A stretch of DNA of 32,000 nt from Candidatus Electrothrix yaqonensis (lineage in GTDB: Bacteria > Desulfobacterota > Desulfobulbia > Desulfobulbales > Desulfobulbaceae): positions 2,040,001 to 2,072,000 of the forward strand of contig CP178758.1 of the NCBI GenBank assembly GCA_047651235.1. Direction: 5' to 3'. The notes under the pieces were generated by a model. It had not been told where the DNA came from. It made no database searches and saw nothing but the letters and a program-made list of their open reading frames with translations. Positions 1,810 through 11,836 of the stretch are shown piece after piece (positions within the stretch are counted from its first letter, which is position 1; each line of letters opens with the position of its first letter). The position numbers and the translations under genes were made by a program.

Positions 1810-2223
1810 TTGAACACCATGTCACTAGAAAAACAGATAAGATTAGGAAGTGCTGTCCTGATAATAGACGACAATCGTATTCTGCTGGGCAAACGTAATA
1901 AGGAACCAGAGTTTGGCAAGTGGGTTTTACCGGGAGGGAAGATTGAATTCGGTGAAACCCACGAACAAGCTGCTATACGGGAAGCCAAAGAAGAATTGGG
2001 TGTTGATATTGAACCTCAAGGTCTGGCAGGGAAAGGTATATACTACATAATGGGGCAAAATAAACAACGTATAATTGTTTACAATCTCGCAAGGCTTACT
2101 GGAGGAGAGCTGCATCCGTCTTCCGATATTAGCGAGGCTAATTTTTTTTCAAAAAACGAATTATTACAAATTGATATTACGGATATTGTCAAAGAGGTTT
2201 TGTTGGATACTGGCTGGATTTGA
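1810..2223 (+). CDS. Nudix hydrolase
   Basis: Complete Nudix box GGKIEFGETHEQAAIREAKEELGV (Gx5Ex7REUxEExGU). The ORF-track start is a TTG, and the likely ATG start is at 1819 (MSLEKQ...). Confidence 0.85.
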   Translation: MNTMSLEKQIRLGSAVLIIDDNRILLGKRNKEPEFGKWVLPGGKIEFGETHEQAAIREAKEELGVDIEPQGLAGKGIYYIMGQNKQRIIVYNLARLTGGELHPSSDISEANFFSKNELLQIDITDIVKEVLLDTGWI

Positions 2224-3062
2224 ATGTCATGGACTTGTCTCATAAAAAGTCTATTTTTTGGTTAATTGTTGCCGCACTGACAGGATTTGCGCTCGCATTT
2301 TATTTTTGGTCCTGTCAGGTCAATGCAGAACCTATTAATTTCCCTTCGTTTATTTTTGTTGGCCTTTCGGGCGTGATTTGCTCTTTGCTTGCTTCTTACT
2401 TGGCATTATCTATTTTATCTCCAGACCATCAGTGCGCGAGGAAAGAATTCAATGAAATCTTAGCCACTGGCATTAACCAATATCTTGCCGATCAGGAGTC
2501 TATGCGAAGTAAAGATTGGGCAACGTTTATATCTGACACTCATAGAGACAGTGAAATTTATATAATTGGAACTGCTAATTCTGAATGGTTAAGAAATGAT
2601 AGATGCAAGAAGGCAATTATTGATGTCGTTACGAAAAAGAATATAACGATTTATGTTTATTTTTTGGATCCGGAGTCGTCATGGGCTGAGGCGAGAGAAG
2701 AAAATGATAAGGATAATAAGTTTGGCAAAACAAAAGAACGAATTAAAAATTCCATTGAAAAATTCAAGGAACTTGCGAGTGAGAATAATAGCAAAGGAAA
2801 AGGAAACATTATATTGCGACAATATGATGCTATGCCGAGTACAGGTATCATAACAAATGGAAGCAGAATTTTTATAAAACATTACCTGACATCAACTTCA
2901 AATAACAGAACGCCTATCGCTGCTTTCAATGTTCCAACAATGAGAAAGAGGTGGAGATTGTCTATTGATTCTATCGAAGGTTGCGATGAATATGTAGAAA
3001 AGTATTTTTTAGACCTGTACGATCTTGTTACTAAGTTCAGAGATAACCTGCCAGTAAGTTGA
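2220..3062 (+). CDS. Membrane protein with 2 N-terminal TM helices and a ~190-aa soluble domain of unknown function
   Basis: Hydrophobic segments SIFWLIVAALTGFALAFYFW and FIFVGLSGVICSLLASYLALSIL. Its start overlaps or abuts the Nudix stop (TTGA at 2220-2223, with an in-frame ATG at 2229). The soluble part shows an alternating strand/helix pattern (EIYIIGT..., ITIYVYFLDPES, NIILRQYD..., RIFIKHYL). No catalytic motif was recognised. Confidence 0.7.
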   Translation: MNVMDLSHKKSIFWLIVAALTGFALAFYFWSCQVNAEPINFPSFIFVGLSGVICSLLASYLALSILSPDHQCARKEFNEILATGINQYLADQESMRSKDWATFISDTHRDSEIYIIGTANSEWLRNDRCKKAIIDVVTKKNITIYVYFLDPESSWAEAREENDKDNKFGKTKERIKNSIEKFKELASENNSKGKGNIILRQYDAMPSTGIITNGSRIFIKHYLTSTSNNRTPIAAFNVPTMRKRWRLSIDSIEGCDEYVEKYFLDLYDLVTKFRDNLPVS

Positions 3063-3083
3063 TAGCTTCAAAGAGAGAAAAGA

Positions 3084-3761
3084 ATGAATAGTAAATGTGG
3101 AGTCTGCGCAGACATAAAAGATATATATAGTGATAACTTGTCACCACTTTCGCTTTCTTGGAGGATCATTAAAGAAACAAAGAATTTTATTGTCACACCA
3201 TCACTTGGGTCAATAGTGGACGGGTATATAGTAATTTGGCCAAAAAAGCATATTTTGAGCATGAAGAACTTGGTTGATGAAGAATTGTACGACTTGATAA
3301 GAATAGTAGAATATTTCAACAACATAATGAAAGAAAAATATGGAAAACAAATAGTTGTTTTTGAACACGGCCAGATTGAAGGATGTAGCGAGGTAGGATG
3401 TGGTGTTAATCATGCCCATATTCATATGGTAGCATTAGATGATGCGAAATTATTTCTGAATAAATCGGAATCTATCTACTTTACTATGAAAGAATATCCA
3501 TCTTACAAAGATTTTTATCAAGACAATTATTGTCCCGAAACAGACTATATGCTAATTTCATCAACTAGTTTTGAGAGTACGAAAGTTTTATCTTATGGTA
3601 ACTCCAGGGTTTCACAAGCGTTACGGAAGATATTGGCGGAATGTTGTGGGCAGAGTCAAAATTGGAACTGGCGAGAGGAGATGGCGATCCCAAAAGCTCT
3701 TAATACTATGAATATATTAAGAGGCGAAGAGTGCCTGGAGAAATCACTTGATTTGGCTTGA
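3084..3761 (+). CDS. HIT (histidine triad) family nucleotide hydrolase/transferase with a C-terminal extension
   Basis: N-terminal CGVC, then GYIVIWPKKH, then the histidine triad NHAHIHMV (HxHxHxx). The protein is 225 aa, about 100 aa longer than minimal HIT proteins. Confidence 0.8.
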   Translation: MNSKCGVCADIKDIYSDNLSPLSLSWRIIKETKNFIVTPSLGSIVDGYIVIWPKKHILSMKNLVDEELYDLIRIVEYFNNIMKEKYGKQIVVFEHGQIEGCSEVGCGVNHAHIHMVALDDAKLFLNKSESIYFTMKEYPSYKDFYQDNYCPETDYMLISSTSFESTKVLSYGNSRVSQALRKILAECCGQSQNWNWREEMAIPKALNTMNILRGEECLEKSLDLA

Positions 3762-4649
3762 AAATTTTCTTTCTGGCCAAGTTATATCCCAGAATATTAA
3801 TCGATGTATAGAATGAATATATCCGCAAGAGACTACAAAAGGATAGTCAACCTTAGTTAATTTTGATAAGTCAGATACTGTCTGCTTCAGGTATGAGAAG
3901 AGAAGCCGTATTTTCTTGTCTGAAATAGCAGTGTATTGATTTTCATTTCTTGTCAATAAATCAAACCCATGCTCTAATAAGTATTTTTTTGTTTGATATA
4001 TCCTAGTTGTATCATCCTGTTTCGAAAATACAATTTTGTTGTTCTTTTCTATATTAGATGCTATTTTTAAATATCTCCATTCAACACTCTTTCTGTATAT
4101 ATTTGTATTGTTAGCGTTTATCTTCCGCTTAATGATCCTGCCACTTCCAATATCCATACTAATAACTTCATGTGGGGATTGATCCCCTCTTTGCAGGTCA
4201 CTTGCATCAAAACCAGGGCCAACAATTTCAAATAATATATCATCCCGATTAAACAAACAGTTTATGCTGTAGATGTTATGCAGACAATTAGCTGGTTCAA
4301 GCCAAAATACAATTCTATTTTGCTCTATATACCTTTTTGTTTCTTGTTCAATATTTTCATGTTCAACGAGATATCCACCACGCGGATAAGGAGGCTTTTC
4401 TGGATTTTTATCATGTCTTAGCAGAAGACGGGTGAATCCATATCGTTTGGTGAAATACTCCACTTTTTCCAGAGAATATTCGGACCATTTTGTAATGATA
4501 ATACCGTTTAAAGTTGGAAAGTTTATTTTTCTCAAGAATAAGATGCTCAAAAACTTATTAAAACCGATCAAATCAGCTATTGCTTCATCAAGATCATCTT
4601 GATTGCCGTCAATCATATATGCATCTTTTAACATCATAGGATTATTCAA
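3744..4649 (-). CDS. Hypothetical 301-aa protein with a weak ATP-grasp / PEP-utilising N-terminal-like resemblance
   Basis: Long AT-rich ORF, convergent with the HIT gene and overlapping it by 18 nt. The only resemblance I can offer from memory is the segment LLLRHD...IVFWLEPAN...FEIVGPGFDASDLQRGDQSPHEV, which recalls PPDK_N-type ATP-grasp proteins. The confidence applies to the ORF being a real CDS. The functional call is weak, about 0.25. Confidence 0.6.
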   Translation of the reverse strand: MNNPMMLKDAYMIDGNQDDLDEAIADLIGFNKFLSILFLRKINFPTLNGIIITKWSEYSLEKVEYFTKRYGFTRLLLRHDKNPEKPPYPRGGYLVEHENIEQETKRYIEQNRIVFWLEPANCLHNIYSINCLFNRDDILFEIVGPGFDASDLQRGDQSPHEVISMDIGSGRIIKRKINANNTNIYRKSVEWRYLKIASNIEKNNKIVFSKQDDTTRIYQTKKYLLEHGFDLLTRNENQYTAISDKKIRLLFSYLKQTVSDLSKLTKVDYPFVVSCGYIHSIHRLIFWDITWPERKFSSQIK

Positions 4650-4748
4650 GGTGTATTTTCATTTTTTATATTTTTACTTGAAAGGATACAGTGTAACTAA
4701 ACAATTTTAGCTTTTACTACAGGTTACCATAATTCTTATCTGATCCTC

Positions 4749-4835
4749 CTACACCCAGTAATACAACACCGGCACGACAGAAACAGTCAAGATGGCGATG
4801 ACCATGCCCACCGAAAATGACGAAGAGGATCTTCA
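4749..4835 (-). repeat. RND pump 3'-end copy 4 (most diverged)
   Basis: The minus-strand frame reads ...SFSVGMVIAILTVSVVPVLYYWV* (TAG at 4749-4751). The intact C-terminus is ...PSFGGMIIAMLTVFVVPVLYCWVEEGRIR*. Confidence 0.7.
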
Positions 4836-5041
4836 GGTTCGCTTTCTCCGCTCCTTTATTTCAGTTACAATATCATCCAGACTCATCTTATCAAACTTTT
4901 TTTTCTCTCTTCCGTGTAGTCACCGAATCCGGTCGTGAACTGATTCAGAAAACGTATTGTGTCCGCCGTTCCGAGCCTGCTGCTTAACAGAGCAATAGCT
5001 TTGATATTTATATCGTTCAACGTTGTCGCCGTAGCACTCAT
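4833..5041 (-). pseudogene. Small antitoxin-like ORF interrupted at an A8 homopolymer
   Basis: The ATG at 5041 overlaps the stop of the upstream PIN remnant (ATGA). It reads MSATATTLNDINIKAIALLSSRLGTADTIRFLNQFTTGFGDYTEERKK, then stops at 4883. With 9 A instead of 8 at ~4894-4901, the frame would continue KKFDKMSLDDIVTEIKERRKRT* to 4833. Confidence 0.45.
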
Positions 5042-5228
5042 TTTTCCATCTCCTGTAACAGTTCAAGGATTGAAACAGTCCTGACTCCGAGATCGTCTAT
5101 CCTCTTCGCTTTTTTCAGAAAGTTGTCATCGCAGGTGCAGAAGAAATCAGCTTTCAGCATTTCCGCCGAGGCAAGATGCAGGGCATCAATCGGTCGCTGA
5201 ATGCAGCAGCAAGATATATTTTCATCAT
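5038..5228 (-). pseudogene. Decayed PIN-domain toxin gene
   Basis: The N-terminal piece MMKIYL... is frameshifted relative to the copy at ~11180 (MMKIYLDNCCI). The C-terminal frame PIDALHLASAEMLKADFFCTCDDNFLKKAKRIDDLGVRTVSILELLQEMEK* is PIN-like. The middle of the gene is missing. Confidence 0.5.
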
Positions 5229-5279
5229 GATCTCAGTATACAGTAATCACTCCATGCAGGTAAAGAGGCAAATCTGGAC

Positions 5280-5355
5280 TCATCCCGTTTTTTTCTCCTC
5301 CACCCAACAATACAACACAGGCACCACAAACACAGTCAGCATCGCAATAAGCATC
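5280..5355 (-). repeat. RND pump 3'-end copy 3
   Basis: ...MLIAMLTVFVVPVLYCWVEEKKTG* (TGA at 5280-5282). It has 3 mismatches in ~58 nt to 15850-15910. The flank 5199-5279 is shared with 11147-11232. Confidence 0.8.
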
Positions 5356-5364
5356 TTCTGAAAA

Positions 5365-5655
5365 ATGTATGAAAACTATGTTTTTACCGTGCCGGAGCAG
5401 AATGCGGATCTTCTTACATCCAACCATTTCTACCGGACCCAGGCCAAGACGGAAATTGATTTTATCACGGTCAGAGAACAGCAGTGTCGGCTGATTGAAG
5501 TGAAGGCGGGAATCTTTGACCGACCGGTCAAGGCGATGAGTGCTTTTGAGAAGAAATATCAGGGGCAATTTGCCGAAATCAGCAAGACTGTTGTCAACAG
5601 GTCGTGTCTTGCCCGGAAGAAAGGGTTTCGTTTTCTTCCGGCATGGTTATTGTGA
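5365..5655 (+). pseudogene. 3' fragment of an AAA+ ATPase gene (DUF4143-type C-terminus)
   Basis: YENYVFTV...HFYRTQAKTEIDFITV...RLIEVKAG matches the C-terminal fENfv...ywRt..g.EvDfv...iEvK signature of DUF4143 ATPases. The ATPase domain is absent, and the fragment begins right at the 5355 junction. Confidence 0.55.
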
Positions 5656-5816
5656 AAATGAACACAGCGGCATTCTTCTGAGGCTGATAGAAAAATACGC
5701 TGACCTGCCTATGGACTTGGCGAACACATGGGGTTCGCCCCTACTTCATTGTATTGATGAGTTTGTCGATATCCACAGATGGGTCGACAACAGGATGTAA
5801 TTGTTCTCTCAGGCCC

Positions 5817-5972
5817 TTAAACTCTTGCAGGGCAACCAAAACCTTCTTGCCCCTTGCTGGATCCGACTGTTTTAGAGCCTTTTTTTGTATGTTTGTCAAC
5901 GAGATATTCATAGAAGCCGAACAGCTCTCTTTTTGCGGCCTCGGGTAATATTTCCATGTTTAATTCTTTCAT
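5817..5972 (-). CDS. Small DUF2281-like (antitoxin-like) protein
   Basis: AGGAG lies 6 nt upstream of the ATG at 5972. The product reads MKELNMEILPEAAKRELFGFYEYLVDKHTKK.... The LPE..K.E...F.EFL pattern resembles DUF2281 proteins. Confidence 0.45.
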   Translation of the reverse strand: MKELNMEILPEAAKRELFGFYEYLVDKHTKKGSKTVGSSKGQEGFGCPARV

Positions 5973-6023
5973 AATCATCTCCTGACCCTGCATTTCAACG
6001 TTCTGGAAATATTTAGTATGTTC

Positions 6024-6052
6024 AGTATATTCAAATTCTCCCGGAAGCACAA
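6024..6052 (-). promoter_or_regulatory. Sigma70-like promoter (TTGTGC-17 nt-TATACT) reading toward the DUF2281-like gene
   Basis: The minus strand reads ttgtgc ttccgggagaatttgaa tatact. It is part of a 33-nt module repeated in inverted orientation at 9345-9377. Confidence 0.4.
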
Positions 6053-6298
6053 CCGTTGTGGTGGAACAGGGGATGCGGGTGGTTGCGGGGCGGCAGACGG
6101 TGGGATGGGGGAACGAGTTGCGATTATTTCTTTTTTTTGGGGGATTTGGTATTTGTCGGGGATAATTGAAGAGGATGGAGGGGGACAGCCCTTCGGGGGA
6201 AGGGCCGGGTTTATTGCATTCTTGGGCTTTATGTTCACGGTACCGGTGGGCATTGGAGGAGGTGATAAACGAGTTTGCTTAATTGGGCTCTGACCCCT

Positions 6299-6391
6299 AA
6301 TTACTCGTTCGGAAAGTTCTGAGCGCTGAATTTCCCGGCGGACAGCCGGGGTTGTACGCGCTCTTTTGTGCAGACCGGTGACATAGGAAAC
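6299..6391 (-). mobile_element. N-terminal fragment of an IS481-like transposase
   Basis: The frame reads VSYVTGLHKRARTTPAVRREIQRSELSERVI, like the HKNARTTP..R..I HTH N-terminus of IS481-family transposases. It breaks off at the GGGGTCAGAG motif (6280-6304). Confidence 0.4.
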
Positions 6392-6577
6392 CGGCAGGCC
6401 GAAGCCTCCCGCACAGCCCACCCAAAGGAAAAAGCACGCCATGCACTGGACATAAAAATACCGCCGGTTAATAAGTAAAAAAGGCGGTTGTCCGCCTATG
6501 TCTTTCGGGTTTCCAAGCCCGGCCCACGGATTTTGCCGTGGACGAAAATAAGGTACAGGGAAGGGGTGGGGGTGTCA

Positions 6578-6606
6578 ATAAAAAAGCCCCGGTGGTGGCC
6601 GGGGCT
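6578..6606 (-). terminator. Rho-independent terminator downstream of the 74-aa peptide gene
   Basis: The minus strand reads AGCCCCGG-CCACCA-CCGGGGCT followed by TTTTTATT. Confidence 0.7.
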
Positions 6607-6665: not shown

Positions 6666-6890
6666 TTAGCGATTCAGGACTGGGTTCCTAAGAACTTCGG
6701 CCGGATTTTCCATTCCGCCGCAACCATCGCCGAAACACGATCCAGCACCAGCAATTTTCACCGCAATCGCTTCTATCATTTCCTCCTTAATTCCTTTTTG
6801 TTGCAAACCCTCTACGAGAGCACCGAGCATCTCTGCTTGATCTTTGCCAATTTCCTTAGCCGTAACTTCTCTCATTACCAATCTAGGCAT
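6666..6890 (-). CDS. 74-aa Cys-containing small protein, candidate RiPP precursor
   Basis: Strong SD (AGGAGG, 8 nt before the ATG at 6890). It has a helical, charged N-terminal two thirds ending ...AVKIAGAG, followed by SCFGDGCGGMENPAEVLRNPVLNR. It lies immediately downstream of the rSAM/SPASM gene on the same strand and is followed by a terminator. Confidence 0.6.
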   Translation of the reverse strand: MPRLVMREVTAKEIGKDQAEMLGALVEGLQQKGIKEEMIEAIAVKIAGAGSCFGDGCGGMENPAEVLRNPVLNR

Positions 6891-6918
6891 ATCAATTACC
6901 TCCTTTAAATTTATATTT

Positions 6919-6942
6919 AGTAAGTACCTTATTATACTTACT
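6919..6942. other. Perfect 8-bp-stem hairpin between the rSAM gene and the peptide gene
   Basis: agtaagta-ccttatta-tacttact. It sits at the AT-rich to GC-normal composition switch. Confidence 0.5.
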
Positions 6943-6948
6943 TTCTGC

Positions 6949-8271
6949 CTAGTAAATACTATCTACACTTATATCCACATCACGTTGCACACTCTCTAAT
7001 AAATTGTGCTTCGCAAAACATCGATGTGTATTTTTTTTATCTTTTTTTGTTTCCAAATAAAGTAAACATCCACCCATACAAAGAGGTAATTCCTTGCAAC
7101 TAATACATTCATTATCTTTAAATGGACTCCAATTATCCCAACTTGCCTGTGATCCAGTTTTATTTACAATAATTTCACCATGATCTGATAGCTCTCCATA
7201 TCTTTCATCCTTAACACCAAGATATTTTGTACAGCGATGAATATGTCCAAATGGATCAATCATAAAAGAATTTTTTTGATACCCCATACAAAACGAAGTA
7301 CAGGGTAATGCATAACCACGAGCTACTGTAAATCCTAAAGAATCTGACAACCGTCCTAAATCTTTCTCTAAATTCCAATAATCATCTGGTAATGTTGTTA
7401 ATGGTTCCATTTTATATATATCGTCAGGGGGTAATGCTTCACGAAAATTTAAAACTATATTATTTCTCAATGGATATAAATACTTTTCAAGTAACGTAGG
7501 GATACTATGCCGATTATGTTCATCAATATTAATTCTCACTATAACCCTTTCAAACAACTCACAATTTTTTTCTATATTATTTAAAATACGACTAAAACTA
7601 GGAAAACCACCTGTCCTAAATCGTCTTTCATCATGAATTTCTGGAGGGCCATCAATTGTTATTTGTATTTCATCTACATGATAACGTCTTAACATTTCAG
7701 CAGTACCACGCGATAATAAATATCCGTTTGTAGCTATACGAGCACTATATTTAACATTCTCAATATCACATTGTGTGATAAAAAAATTACTAAATTTTTC
7801 AATAAGTCGTGTTTGAAGAAGTGGCTCTCCTCCAAACCATGCTACACGAAACCGCTTTTTCCCAATAATATTCCGTGAAACGAACTTGTTGATTGAACTA
7901 CATAACTCATTAGAGATATGAACATCAATGTGTTTTTCATAACAATAAACACATCGAAAATTACATGCCAAAGTTAAAGCAATCCCTAATCCAAAAGCAT
8001 CACTACCAAGTCTAGCTGTCTGATGTATCTGCTCAACCCAACCTTTTTCATCAAACTCGTTCTCTACAATAAATCCATTTTTCTTAAGCAATTGTATTGA
8101 AGAATCACCTACATCAAATACAAATTGCTCTCCACCTTTTATTAATAAGTCACCCAATTGCTGTAACGGAGGTTTACTAATATTAAGTACACTTGTAGTA
8201 CGAGTATTAATTAAAAACTGCTCTCCAGAGGAAGAAGTCTTTACTGTATTAAATATAGAATTTTTTACCAT
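6949..8271 (-). CDS. Radical SAM enzyme with a C-terminal SPASM domain (peptide-maturase type)
   Basis: CNFRCVYCYE (CxxxCxxC) at about residue 103, GGEPLL, and C-terminal Cys clusters (CTSFC..., HRCTKY, ECISCKELPLCMGGC) typical of SPASM. The ~90-aa N-terminal extension resembles peptide-recognition regions of sactisynthase-like enzymes. The gene is very AT-rich. Confidence 0.85.
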   Translation of the reverse strand: MVKNSIFNTVKTSSSGEQFLINTRTTSVLNISKPPLQQLGDLLIKGGEQFVFDVGDSSIQLLKKNGFIVENEFDEKGWVEQIHQTARLGSDAFGLGIALTLACNFRCVYCYEKHIDVHISNELCSSINKFVSRNIIGKKRFRVAWFGGEPLLQTRLIEKFSNFFITQCDIENVKYSARIATNGYLLSRGTAEMLRRYHVDEIQITIDGPPEIHDERRFRTGGFPSFSRILNNIEKNCELFERVIVRINIDEHNRHSIPTLLEKYLYPLRNNIVLNFREALPPDDIYKMEPLTTLPDDYWNLEKDLGRLSDSLGFTVARGYALPCTSFCMGYQKNSFMIDPFGHIHRCTKYLGVKDERYGELSDHGEIIVNKTGSQASWDNWSPFKDNECISCKELPLCMGGCLLYLETKKDKKNTHRCFAKHNLLESVQRDVDISVDSIY

Positions 8272-8365: not shown

Positions 8366-9040
8366 TCAATTTATCCCCCGAACCACAATCCCCTCCCCAA
8401 GCAGCTGCCCCCAAACCGTATCCCCGGCCCGGGCCGCATACCACTTCCCGTTATCCATAAAATAACAAGGTTGCTCGGTCACCCCCCACCCCTTCAGCTT
8501 CACAGCCTCCCAACGCTCCTCAGTGGGCTGCAACCGGGCCCGGATAAAACGCCCATGCCCCGGCAGATGAATAATCCTGTCCGACCCCTCCGCCTGCAGG
8601 GCCAACCCGCTTTCTCCCTCGGTCCCGATGATCAGCCAGCGGCCTTTCTCAATCTTTCCGTTATTCCAACGTAATGTACCTTCAACAAAGCATTTCTGCA
8701 AACCCTTTAACTTATATTCCTCCAACATAATCTGAGGAGAACCGGTCAGATAGCCCAGCATGGCGGATAATCCGCCCATAGAGCCCACCTGACTGCCAGC
8801 CCAGGCCAGGGCACCGAAAATCAATAAAACGCTGAACTCGGCCCCGCTCCCGGTCTTCAGCCGCCATGATCGCTTGAAAAAGACAAAGAGCTTATTGGTC
8901 CAGGGCGACATGGCCCGCACCCCGCTGACCGTGGCGCAGTCAGCCACCACATGGAGCAGGGCACCGACCCCGATAAAAAAGTCGTAAATTAGGGACAAAC
9001 CACGTTTTCCACTAACAACGTAAGAGTCAAAAAAACACAA
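8366..9040 (-). CDS. YdjM/DUF457-like membrane-bound metal-dependent hydrolase, N-terminally truncated, with an unknown ~110-aa C-terminal domain
   Basis: LLHVVADCATVSGVRAMSPW matches the second His/Asp motif of the YdjM family (SH...D..T..G...L.P). There is no ATG start: the ORF opens with TTG, and a stop lies 14 codons upstream. A possible promoter TTGACA-17-ATATTG lies at ~9085-9113 on the minus strand. Confidence 0.45.
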   Translation of the reverse strand: MCFFDSYVVSGKRGLSLIYDFFIGVGALLHVVADCATVSGVRAMSPWTNKLFVFFKRSWRLKTGSGAEFSVLLIFGALAWAGSQVGSMGGLSAMLGYLTGSPQIMLEEYKLKGLQKCFVEGTLRWNNGKIEKGRWLIIGTEGESGLALQAEGSDRIIHLPGHGRFIRARLQPTEERWEAVKLKGWGVTEQPCYFMDNGKWYAARAGDTVWGQLLGEGIVVRGIN

Positions 9041-9456: not shown

Positions 9457-10380
9457 ATGGCCAGCAAAGAACGCTATATCAACCTGTTCACTGATTACGG
9501 ATTTAAGAAGATCTTCGGTGAAGAACCGAATAAGAACCTGCTCCTGGATTTTCTCAACGAGCTGCTGAAAGAGGAACAGGGAGAGATCCGGGATTTGACC
9601 TATCTGAAGACCGAACAGCTCGGTGACACCGATATCGACCGCAAGGCGATCTTCGATCTCTACTGCGAGAATGAACGAGGTGAGAAGTTCATTGTCGAAC
9701 TCCAGAAGAGCAAACAGAATTTTTTCAAGGACCGAGCACTCTACTACTCCACCTTTCCCATCCGCGAACAGGCTGAACGAGGGGACTGGAATTTTAAACT
9801 TAAGGCCGTGTATACGGTGGCTATCCTGGACTTTGTCTTTGACGAGGATAAGAACCAACCGGAAAAGTACCGCTATGATGTTAAGCTGTCTGATATCGAA
9901 ACTAACCGGGTGTTTTATGATAAACTGACCTTCATCTATCTGGAAATGCCCAAATTCAGCAAGAACCTGGATGAGCTGAAGACTCGTTTCGATAAATGGC
10001 TGTACGTTATCAGGAATCTGAACCGGCTGGAACGAATACCGGACATGCTACGGGAACAGGTGTTTGAGCAGCTCTTTGATACTGCGGAGATTGCACGCTT
10101 TACCCCGGACCAAGTGCGTTCTTATGAGAAGAGTCTGAAATATTATCGGGACATGAAAAACTCCCTTGATACAGCCTTTGATGAGGGGAGAGTAGAAGGA
10201 AAAGAAGAAGGGAGAGTAGAAGGAAAAGAAGAAGGGAGAGTAGAAGGTAAGAATGAAAGAGATAGAGAAATAGTCCTCAACGGACTTCAGCAAGGATTTG
10301 ATATCAAAATGATTGCTCAGTTGACGGGCCTGTCAGAAGAAGAGATTAAGGAGATTGGACAAGAGCGCTCGGACGACTAA
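9457..10380 (+). CDS. Rpn-family recombination-promoting nuclease / PD-(D/E)XK putative transposase
   Basis: The N-terminus YINLFTDYGFKKIFGEEPNKNLLLDFLNELL and the ...DLYCENERGEKFIVELQ core are characteristic of this family (TIGR01784-type). The C-terminus carries EGRVEGKE repeats. Confidence 0.85.
   Translation: MASKERYINLFTDYGFKKIFGEEPNKNLLLDFLNELLKEEQGEIRDLTYLKTEQLGDTDIDRKAIFDLYCENERGEKFIVELQKSKQNFFKDRALYYSTFPIREQAERGDWNFKLKAVYTVAILDFVFDEDKNQPEKYRYDVKLSDIETNRVFYDKLTFIYLEMPKFSKNLDELKTRFDKWLYVIRNLNRLERIPDMLREQVFEQLFDTAEIARFTPDQVRSYEKSLKYYRDMKNSLDTAFDEGRVEGKEEGRVEGKEEGRVEGKNERDREIVLNGLQQGFDIKMIAQLTGLSEEEIKEIGQERSDD
10186..10257 (+). repeat. 24-bp tandem repeat x3 inside the Rpn-family gene
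   Basis: gggagagtagaaggaaaagaagaa occurs twice perfectly, plus a third unit with 3 mismatches. It encodes (G)RVEGKEE repeats in frame. Confidence 0.9.
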
Positions 10381-10488: not shown

Positions 10489-11103
10489 TCAAGCCCCGCG
10501 CATAGTCACCCGATTTCTTCGCGCCCCCTGTTCAGCAAACCGTACTTTTCTGTACACCTCGGCCACCGGCAATTCGCACTCTATTGATTCGACAGGAAGT
10601 ACATCTTCTTCACCTTGATATATCGTATACACCCAGGACTTATCGGCCTGCCGGGCAAATCGTTCCATCTTAAAGCTATACTGAGAAACTAGGATATACT
10701 CAGTAAATGAAGGGAGCTCCTGATAATGGGAGAACTTGTCTCCCCGATCATAGGCCTCGGTGCTGCCGGAAAGGATTTCTATAAGAACGACGGGATTCAG
10801 CAGCACATCGTTATGTTCATCCTCATACTTCTCTTTTTCACAGACAACAACGATATCCGGGTAGGAATACTTTTTCCTCTTTTGGACCTTCACCTTCATG
10901 TCGCTGGCAAAGACGCTGCACGGCTTCTCCAACAGCTGATTGCCCAGCAGGCGGACGATATTTGTCGAGATCTGGTTATGTTCCCGGCTTGCCCCGGCCA
11001 TGGCAAAGACTTCTCCGGCAAAGTATTCATGCCGGATATCACCATCACGTTCCCCGGTAAGATATTCTTCAGGGCTGATATGATGCTGCTCCTGCGCCTG
11101 CAT
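10489..11103 (-). CDS. Uma2-family (DUF820) putative restriction-type endonuclease
   Basis: Typical Uma2 pattern: ISPEEYL..ER....RHEYF.GEVFAMAG.S..HN.I..N....L, then YPD..VVC and ...P.VLIEILS.ST...D...K...Y. SD AGGAGA lies 7 nt upstream of the ATG. Confidence 0.85.
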   Translation of the reverse strand: MQAQEQHHISPEEYLTGERDGDIRHEYFAGEVFAMAGASREHNQISTNIVRLLGNQLLEKPCSVFASDMKVKVQKRKKYSYPDIVVVCEKEKYEDEHNDVLLNPVVLIEILSGSTEAYDRGDKFSHYQELPSFTEYILVSQYSFKMERFARQADKSWVYTIYQGEEDVLPVESIECELPVAEVYRKVRFAEQGARRNRVTMRGA

Positions 11104-11422: not shown

Positions 11423-11836
11423 TCAGACGATTTCAATGTAGAATTGGGAAACGACCCTGAGTCCCAAGTGGGCAACCATAGGTTCAAAGTCCCTGTCATC
11501 ATGCAGCAAAGAGAGCGTGTTCATGATACAGAATGTCCCGATGATCATATCAACAGTCTTCCTAACGGTAACACCTTTTTTCCGTAACGTTCTGTAGTTC
11601 TCGGCAGCCGCGACAGCAACAGCATATCCTCCCAATTCTTTACAGGGAAGTATGCTCATAACTTCTTTTGCCTGTGCATAGTCGCTGTCTTTCCGAAATC
11701 CCTGCAGCACCTCTGTCAGAATCAGATCCCCGGTATACACCGGAACCTGTAGCAGCAGTTGATCCAGCATTTCCGTCTGCCATGTTGCCTGACCGTTAAA
11801 ATAGTTTACCCACACTGAGGAATCGACTAGAATCAT
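11423..11836 (-). CDS. vapC: VapC PIN-domain toxin
   Basis: MILVDSSVWVNYF..., with conserved acidic residues (D5, E in LTEV, D in VDMI, DDRDF). It overlaps the upstream vapB stop by 1 nt. Confidence 0.85.
   Translation of the reverse strand: MILVDSSVWVNYFNGQATWQTEMLDQLLLQVPVYTGDLILTEVLQGFRKDSDYAQAKEVMSILPCKELGGYAVAVAAAENYRTLRKKGVTVRKTVDMIIGTFCIMNTLSLLHDDRDFEPMVAHLGLRVVSQFYIEIV

Follow-up and report, generated by a model that had tools for sequence, protein, structure and literature searches.

Several peptide maturation systems built on radical S-adenosylmethionine (SAM) enzymes offer a reference for the locus described here. The streptococcal peptide NxxcA carries a single thioether between Cys23 and the Cβ of Asn20, and freyrasin carries Cys-Asp Cβ thioethers (PMC8326336). 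PapB is reported to depend on a carboxylate partner (PMC12373016). The wide conservation of the SCIFF peptides has been read as speaking against an antibiotic function (PMC8326336). We analyzed a 32,000-nucleotide (nt) stretch of Candidatus Electrothrix DNA, hereafter the window. Its minus strand encodes a radical SAM/SPASM protein of 440 amino acids (aa; 6949..8271) and, 58 nt downstream, a 74-aa open reading frame (ORF; 6666..6890). A first-pass annotation of the window had proposed that these two genes, adjacent and on the same strand, encode a maturase and its Cys-containing precursor, and this proposal is supported by the recurring pairing and co-divergence reported below. The elements that it lists are all found at the coordinates given there. 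We consider it likely that they form a self-contained, horizontally acquired cassette for a peptide made by the ribosome and modified after translation (a RiPP), with the 74-aa protein as precursor and the 440-aa protein as maturase. In the database entries of Ca. Electrothrix sp. YB6, the 440-aa protein (100% identical) is named "radical SAM protein" and the 74-aa protein is a hypothetical protein.

Recurrence of the enzyme-peptide pair

Used as a single query in a word-indexed search of 5.8 billion proteins, the 74-aa peptide returned only itself. The first-pass annotation had described the pair as a candidate orphan. This status was overturned by profile searches and by reading the DNA next to homologues of the radical SAM enzyme, which revealed a small, phylogenetically scattered family instead. 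The method matters here: a peptide that is an orphan by word-indexed, single-sequence search is not one when the DNA beside the enzyme homologues is read. Homologous ORFs of 58-77 aa adjoin every close homologue of the enzyme with enough contig, giving 12 distinct pairs. A 77-aa ORF begins 3 nt past the stop codon of a 48% identical enzyme gene (P0006), a 75-aa ORF lies 62 nt upstream of a 54% identical one (P0002), and a downstream ORF overlaps a 51% identical one (P0005); the products of these three ORFs share 38-50% identity with the 74-aa peptide.

We fetched 160 further loci around relatives of the enzyme and searched all their six-frame ORFs with a hidden Markov model (HMM). The genome loci were the best 80 of 334 genome matches, and the total set comprised 171 loci. 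The family was also found in L006 (a metagenome-assembled genome, MAG, of Brevefilum sp.), L007 (an Ignavibacteria MAG), L087, L088, L089 and L095. Pairs with 38-54% identical enzymes occur at L001, L002-4, L005, L006, L007, L087/L166/L167, L088, L089, L095/L169, L170 and L171. At L087, one copy of the peptide stands on either side of the enzyme gene. The L087/L166/L167 loci are GC-rich, and the two precursors flanking the enzyme there are diverged from each other (e.g. L166 1104-1337 and 2932-3159); the extra 61-aa and 64-aa ORFs called in them are probably spurious.

With a broader profile, weaker homologues of the leader were recovered beside enzymes of 32-37% identity (L016/L099, L091, L092 and L093). 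At L090, L101/L102 and L008, enzymes of 33-35% identity adjoin short ORFs with the motifs DCISNGNC, YCDGDGRC, SCGDGC and SCNSDGVMPC. In L008, a Bipolaricaulota MAG, the 35% identical enzyme is flanked by two ORFs of 33-35 aa (169-267 and 1628-1732), which carry the last two of these motifs. Since these ORFs are devoid of the long helical leader, the core motif may predate the leader family.

In total, the pairing is found in at least 12 independent loci from different phyla, with GC contents from 32% to 64%, and the precursor genes that the first-pass annotation had asked for next to enzyme homologues elsewhere are thereby homologues of the 74-aa peptide. In the reverse direction, a profile search of the 5.8 billion proteins gave 12 peptides. 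Five of these were looked up and are flanked by a radical SAM gene; among the five loci, the L168 sequence is cut 112 nt upstream of the peptide. The enzyme fragment adjoining P0126 shares 53% identity with the 440-aa enzyme, and the one adjoining P0123 shares 51%. Wherever flanking DNA was available, peptide homologues were never apart from such an enzyme, and no other consistent partner of the enzyme emerged; the opposite of either observation had been named beforehand as telling against the pair. The divergences of enzyme and peptide are correlated (Pearson r = 0.80 over 66 locus pairs from 12 loci; Mantel test, 0/5000 permutations). These results show the enzyme and the peptide to be inherited together, as one unit, across many unrelated lineages.

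The conserved unit is exactly two genes. A tblastn comparison of 27 window ORFs with the 171 loci detected no conserved third gene, nothing consistent being present near the enzyme gene. In homologous pairs, the intergenic gap is typically 3-22 nt, or the genes overlap. At L002 and L006, a pst operon lies upstream of the pair and SGL/cupin (sugar-related) genes lie downstream. The missing protease, transporter and immunity genes, initially listed as a caveat, proved to be a family-wide trait of a minimal two-gene cassette, and in this absence of protease and export genes the family resembles the SCIFF cassettes.

The maturase and its precursor family

In NCBIfam, the best matches of the 440-aa protein are all RiPP radical SAM/SPASM maturases, and none of the curated cut-offs (340-600 bits for the top models) is reached. 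Hence, the subfamily classification suggested by the first-pass annotation gave the kind of enzyme but not a named subfamily. The highest score is that of TIGR04463 (213.4 bits for a cut-off of 525), followed by Clo7bot (TIGR04334; 199.8 for 600), CefB (NF038107; 166.5 for 600), the geopeptide maturase (TIGR04280; 154.9 for 400), FlmE/OhkG (133 bits) and PapB (NF047865; 107.7 for 340). The SCIFF maturase model (TIGR03974) scores 59.9 bits for a cut-off of 425. The PapB model is presumably the best-scoring NCBIfam match with experimental characterization. In Pfam, the protein matches Radical_SAM (55.4 bits; cut-off 29.5) and also Fer4_12. Judging from these profiles, it appears to be a peptide maturase of an uncurated subfamily. 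FlmE and OhkG are absent as radical SAM enzymes from the literature searched, and the compendium paper on radical SAM RiPPs makes no mention of the nearest TIGRFAM families.

The three features initially attributed to the enzyme, a CxxxCxxC motif, an N-terminal extension of about 90 aa of the recognition type and a Cys-rich SPASM end, are all present in the homologue alignment and in the structural model. None of the ten Fe-S cysteines varies across 24 homologues. Three of them (C103, C107 and C110) form the CX3CX2C motif of the radical SAM [4Fe-4S] cluster (7942..7965), and the other seven (328, 347, 389, 392, 398, 402 and 418) belong to the SPASM domain (7018..7290). Their spacing, C328-x13-G342-x4-C347, C389-x2-C392-x5-C398-x3-C402 and C418, fits CX13GX4C...CX2CX5CX3C...C, the criterion being the general seven-Cys SPASM pattern CX9-15GX4C...CX2CX5CX3C...C.

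The AlphaFold2 model of the enzyme has a predicted local distance difference test (pLDDT) score of 88.4 and a predicted template modelling (pTM) score of 0.88. Residues 1-90 (8002..8271) form a strand/helix domain (pLDDT about 90), which precedes the barrel and the SPASM domain, with strands at 2-4, 8-12, 18-22 and 27-30 and helices at 36-44, 56-64 and 75-88. In this domain, K3, S5, N8 and N22 are near-invariant in the homologue alignment, and L62, F67 and E75 are invariant. The closest solved structure is CteB (5wgg; template modelling score 0.67 over the full length, Foldseek alignment of 452 columns), and the next fold matches are anSME, SuiB, SkfB and ChlB. A sequence search of the PDB returned CteB, anSME, SkfB and ChlB, and the SPASM part of the enzyme can be aligned with those of CteB and anSME. 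The model suggests that the N-terminal 90 or so residues are a domain resembling a RiPP recognition element (RRE), predicted to bind the leader.

The precursor gene has the translation and termination signals that had been read from the sequence. Its Shine-Dalgarno sequence, AAAGGAGG (6899..6906), lies 8 nt ahead of the ATG. It is followed by an intrinsic terminator (6577..6606), composed of a terminator-like hairpin with the stem AGCCCCGG/CCGGGGCT at 6606..6585, in which 7 of the 8 pairs are G-C, and of the T-run TTTTTTATT. Modelled by AlphaFold2 with 12 homologues, the peptide shows helices at residues 11-31 and 36-50 (pLDDT 82-91 over residues 11-40), so that the leader part (residues 1-50; 6741..6890) is predicted to be a two-helix hairpin. 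Residues 51-74, SCFGDGCGGMENPAEVLRNPVLNR, which together with the stop codon occupy 6666..6740, are unstructured and of low confidence (pLDDT 47-52). In the model, the two-helix leader and the unstructured tail correspond to the leader-core layout that had been recognized at first reading.

Scanning 1.84 billion representative proteins in full with HMMER gave 31 matches at E up to 0.001, of which 27 are peptides of 41-82 aa and the other 4 are long. Two of the long ones, P0144 (tandem repeats) and P0155 (repeated Cys-rich units, which look saposin-like), were read and discarded as repeat or chance matches; P0153 and P0157, with long multi-stretch matches, were left out of the family unread. 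Seven stretches of P0144 (796 aa) match positions 29-57 of the precursor profile, with tandem units of the form ...AAWVTAQTTAIQSSFADGCNP..., by chance or through distant kinship. The pattern shared by the family is ...A-E-x-L-x-x-h-H-A-E-L-h-K-K-G-h-x-x-x-h-A-x-x-h-A-x-K-V-A-G-A-A-S-S-x-x-D-G-x-C-G..., and the conserved leader pattern is ...A-E-x-L-x-x-L-x-x-x-L-x-K-K-G-h-x-x-x-h-x-E-x-I-A-x-x-h-A-G-A. The comparison with Nif11, NHLP and other curated leader families yielded no consistent match: when 12 family members were scanned with the NCBIfam and Pfam models (E up to 1), only scattered chance matches came up. Among the titles and abstracts listed for recent ranthipeptide papers, none describes the family, and a single, unrelated preprint mentions both Electrothrix and radical SAM.

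Conservation in the core is concentrated in a few residues. The motif [D/N/G]-G-x(0-1)-C is present in all 38 small members, with D as its first residue in 35. The residue matching Cys52, three before Asp55, is Ser in 27/38 and Cys in 8/38. There is a single Cys in 25/38 members, and in 6/38 the chain ends at most three residues past the Cys. The form with a spacer, [D/N/G]-G-x-C, is found in 28/38 relatives, and reads N-G-N-C in two distant ones (L016 and L090). D55, G56 and C57 are invariant in a family alignment (A4). The Electrothrix subclade has D-G-C without the spacer, and its conserved G-M-E-N-P-A-E tail is common with the closest homologues. In the Electrothrix peptide, the signature is S51-C52-F-G-D55-G56-C57 (6720..6740), the proposed modification site. 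From these alignments, selection appears to act on the short stretch S-[S/C]-x-x-D-G-(x)-C, in which no Cys other than Cys57 is invariant. The peptide had been introduced as a two-Cys peptide; its 74 residues do contain two, but this is not a family signature.

Predicted chemistry and competing readings

A reaction scheme can be proposed from these elements. The RRE-like N-terminal domain would bind the helical leader. The CX3CX2C cluster would cleave SAM and generate a 5'-deoxyadenosyl radical, and this radical would take a hydrogen from a residue of the core that lies just upstream of Cys57, a side-chain carbon of Asp55 being the most probable site. The thiol of Cys57, possibly held on auxiliary cluster I, would then capture the substrate radical. 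The outcome would be one small thioether ring, with a loss of 2 Da (-2 Da). Such chemistry, akin to that of NxxcB (Asn-x-x-Cys) or PapB (Cys-Asp), would be of the ranthipeptide type, a class defined by a thioether between a Cys sulfur and a non-alpha carbon, and is predicted by analogy (PMC8326336, PMC10114670). In this scheme, the crosslink partner would have to lie upstream of Cys57, because several members end 1-3 residues after it. Asp55 is favored for two reasons: apart from Cys57, no other functional side chain is near-invariant, and characterized ranthipeptide enzymes link Cys to the Cβ of Asn or Asp (PMC8326336). A C-x3-E reading, in which CGGME would be a PapB-like site, was set aside in view of the same chain ends. 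Since neither a protease nor an exporter gene goes with the pair, the product may have an intracellular role or depend on functions of the host, a point also discussed for the SCIFF peptides. The small core and its single invariant Cys make the site of the chemistry easy to pin down.

Several points weigh against this reading of the locus. By sequence comparison, the enzyme reaches no curated cut-off, so that no function is transferred to it from characterized enzymes. We infer the thioether, its partner residue and the bonded carbon from analogy with known systems. In 2 of the 38 small members Asp55 is Asn, and in 1 it is Gly. The Asp-Cys spacing varies as well (0 or 1 residue), and the Ser/Cys alternation at position 52 matches the alternation among anSME substrates. 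The difference between the two genes in GC content at third codon positions (GC3) exceeds that of all 11 homologous pairs, in which it is at most 0.12. In addition, no sigma-70-like promoter was found on the minus strand upstream of either gene; 9 sigma-70-like sites were counted, for a mean of 6.8 in shuffled sequences, which is no excess.

Among the other explanations, the one that survives best keeps the maturase-precursor pair and changes its chemistry, and we regard it as rather improbable. Ser/Cys52 or Cys57 might be converted to formylglycine or a thioaldehyde in an anSME-like manner, or the enzyme might catalyze a C-C or ether cross-link, an epimerization, or a rearrangement of the pyrroloquinoline quinone (PQQ)/mycofactocin type. 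Because Ser (27 members) and Cys (8 members) alternate at position 52 as anSME accepts (PMC8326336), an outcome of this oxidative type is possible, and anSME is the second-best fold and sequence match of the enzyme; the C/S-x-P-x-R motif of anSME is nevertheless absent from the core, where Asp, Gly and Cys are the sole invariant side chains. SPASM enzymes catalyze many different reactions (PMC10114670), and a pair free of export and protease genes would fit an intracellular or cofactor-like product. Against this, the nearest NCBIfam families all pair with Cys-rich peptides, and CteB, the closest structure by fold, synthesizes a thioether. A comparably doubtful idea, which we mention as speculation, is that of a novel product: a short S-S-x-x-D-G-x-C core on a long folded leader, with a chemistry unlike the known sacti- and ranthipeptide links (a tight Cys-Asp ring of 2-3 residues, or Ser/Cys oxidation). 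Made without protease or exporter, it might act within the cells of anaerobes, a cable bacterium among them, as a signal, as the precursor of a cofactor or as a small redox-active protein.

We give little credence to a third possibility, in which the small protein would be an accessory partner (a chaperone, a scaffold, or an Fe-S or redox protein) and the true substrate would either come from a gene elsewhere or be something other than a peptide. The helical hairpin predicted with confidence for the leader might be a small folded domain; however, the enzyme already has its own RRE-like domain, and a single invariant Cys is too few for a cluster. Moreover, the short motif conserved in the disordered tail, right after a Gly/Ala-rich junction, corresponds to a leader-core layout, and in some loci two copies flank the enzyme, as is often the case for precursors.

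The first-pass annotation had also cautioned that the adjacency might be an accident of island junctions. On this view, an AT-rich enzyme gene would have been inserted beside an unrelated small ORF of the host, and the enzyme would act on something else. The underlying mismatch is real: the enzyme gene has 32.2% GC and a GC3 of 0.18, the peptide gene 47.1% GC and a GC3 of 0.41, and the region is a mosaic of accessory genes. Synonymous codon usage divides the peptide gene in two, codons 1-50 fitting that of the enzyme gene (log-likelihood -51.7 vs -63.3 for the host) and codons 51-74 that of the host (-27.0 vs -39.1 for the enzyme gene). However, 41.6% GC is already expected for the peptide gene under the codon usage of the enzyme gene, so that part of the gap comes from amino-acid composition. 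The observed GC content is 4 standard deviations above this expectation and 4 below that under host usage; in genes of host composition, GC3 is 0.55-0.78 in 8/9 and 0.49 in one. The entire peptide, including the GMENPAE tail, is homologous to partners elsewhere, which argues that the GC3 shift is not an end of the homologous unit. Exchange with a homologous cassette of higher GC content, or selection on the precursor codons, are possible origins of the shift. An accident is in any case refuted by the peptide family standing beside enzyme homologues in at least 12 loci of different phyla and GC contents, and by the co-divergence of the two proteins, and we judge it highly improbable. Similarly, conservation at the protein level across very different GC contents contradicts the idea that the small ORFs are non-coding artefacts.

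A hairpin between the two genes had been placed exactly at the composition switch. It exists (6919..6942, minus strand; 9-bp stem and 6-nt loop), but not at the switch, which lies inside the peptide gene, the hairpin and the Shine-Dalgarno sequence being in AT-rich DNA. We rejected it as a functional element and consider it probably incidental, for it folds no better than shuffled sequences (z = -0.81; 37 of 200 shuffles fold as well) and has no counterpart in the homologous loci.

Finally, that the enzyme is a viperin-like protein of a defence island is next to inconceivable: the PADLOC pVip matches are weak (43.6 and 33.5 bits) and limited to the generic radical SAM core (residues 99-236, and 99-213 for the 43.6-bit one), models of RiPP maturases reach much higher scores (up to 213 bits), the protein has a conserved peptide partner as well as full SPASM and RRE-like domains, which viperins are not known to have, and what remains in favor of this idea are accessory neighbors including NUDIX (matching a candidate defence model), HEPN/NTase, PIN and Uma2 genes.

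Genomic setting, spread and known systems

The pair lies in an accessory stretch that covers about 0-12 kb of the window, core genes starting from 12.8 kb. An NTase/HEPN pair is located at 377-1071. A second AT-rich block (1810-4649), with genes of 33-36% GC, may be a separate acquired module; it contains a NUDIX gene with a match to PDC-S07, one of the candidate defence models of PADLOC (4.6e-17), a HIT-like 225-aa protein, a 280-aa protein without Pfam or PADLOC match, and a convergent 301-aa protein without Pfam, NCBIfam or PADLOC match. No convincing gene is found in the region 4700-6450, which is crowded with short overlapping ORFs and resembles decayed accessory DNA; it includes the C-terminal fragment of a DUF4143 protein (5365-5655). 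Upstream of the enzyme gene, a 224-aa ORF (8366-9040) matches the YdjM model over positions 89-163 of 176 only, with 24.9 bits for a cut-off of 29; because its start codon is TTG, this may be the gene of a membrane protein that was truncated at the N-terminus or remodelled. Further along are a gene of the PD-(D/E)XK transposase family (PDDEXK_2; 9457-10380), whose C-terminal end has three tandem EGRVEGKE units, a Uma2 gene (10489-11103) and a PIN gene (11423-11836).

A perfect 13-nt inverted repeat, GAAGGGGTGGGGG/CCCCCACCCCTTC, at 6560-6572 and 8483-8495, brackets the cassette, and about 0.05 such repeats are estimated to occur by chance per 2.5 kb. Its right arm is inside the YdjM-like ORF. 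Flanking repeats were considered as ends of an island and found unconvincing, the only candidate being this inverted repeat of 13 nt with one arm in a neighboring gene. A scan of the whole window with Rfam gave no match, nor did a blastn comparison of the cassette with a plasmid collection.

No other Electrothrix is present among the best 80 of the 334 genome matches, which together with the low GC content indicates that the cassette was horizontally acquired. The family is rare, with about 27 clusters among the 1.84 billion representative proteins. The named genomes that contain it are one of an Electrothrix (Desulfobulbaceae), one of Anaerolineae and one of Ignavibacteria; weaker relatives are found in a genome labelled only Proteobacteria, and ORFs with the core motif in a Bipolaricaulota genome. 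A distribution so scattered suggests that a minimal two-gene unit has been transferred. Overall, the locus defines a new, uncurated family of peptides associated with a radical SAM/SPASM enzyme and probably modified by it, with an enzyme clade below the NCBIfam cut-offs and a precursor that has no Pfam or NCBIfam model. It is a new small family inside a well-known kind of system, and leaves the understanding of such systems unchanged. Nothing ties the cassette to the electron conduction of cable bacteria.

Compared with the families of the best-scoring models (TIGR04463, Clo7bot, CefB and the geopeptide maturases), which align with nearly the whole protein including its N-terminal domain, the logic of the gene pair is the same. 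The scores are far below the cut-offs, however, and the partner peptides there are Cys-rich, going by the names of the models, whereas here only one Cys is conserved and the leader, also conserved, is long and helical. PapB and freyrasin resemble the locus in that an Asp next to the donor Cys would likely be the acceptor. They differ in the PapB score, which is less than a third of the cut-off, and in having a repeated C-x3-D motif with Cys upstream of Asp, while here one motif is present and the invariant Cys is downstream. The spacing in C52-x-x-D55 also departs from C-x3-D, and C52 varies within the family.

The streptococcal system NxxcA/NxxcB can be compared with the present one in the core motif. 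Here too, a single small ring is predicted to join one Cys to an Asx residue 2-3 positions upstream. The D/N-G-x-C of most of the family has the N-x-x-C spacing, and the L016 and L090 relatives have exactly the N-G-N-C form (PMC8326336). In the Electrothrix subclade, by contrast, D-G-C is one residue shorter and has Asp instead of Asn. The leader is unrelated and much longer, and there is no quorum-sensing context.

A further comparison is with CteB and thermocellin, of the SCIFF type (scfA-scfB). The enzyme is only 18% identical to CteB. The SCIFF peptides have six Cys in about 45 residues, compared with 1-2 Cys in 58-82 aa here, the leaders are unrelated, and the present family is not confined to Clostridia. 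On the other hand, CteB is the best match in the PDB by both sequence and fold, and shares the order of RRE, radical SAM core and seven-Cys SPASM domain. As in the family described here, SCIFF-type systems are minimal two-gene cassettes without protease or exporter, in which the Cys-containing core is at the C-terminal end of the precursor.

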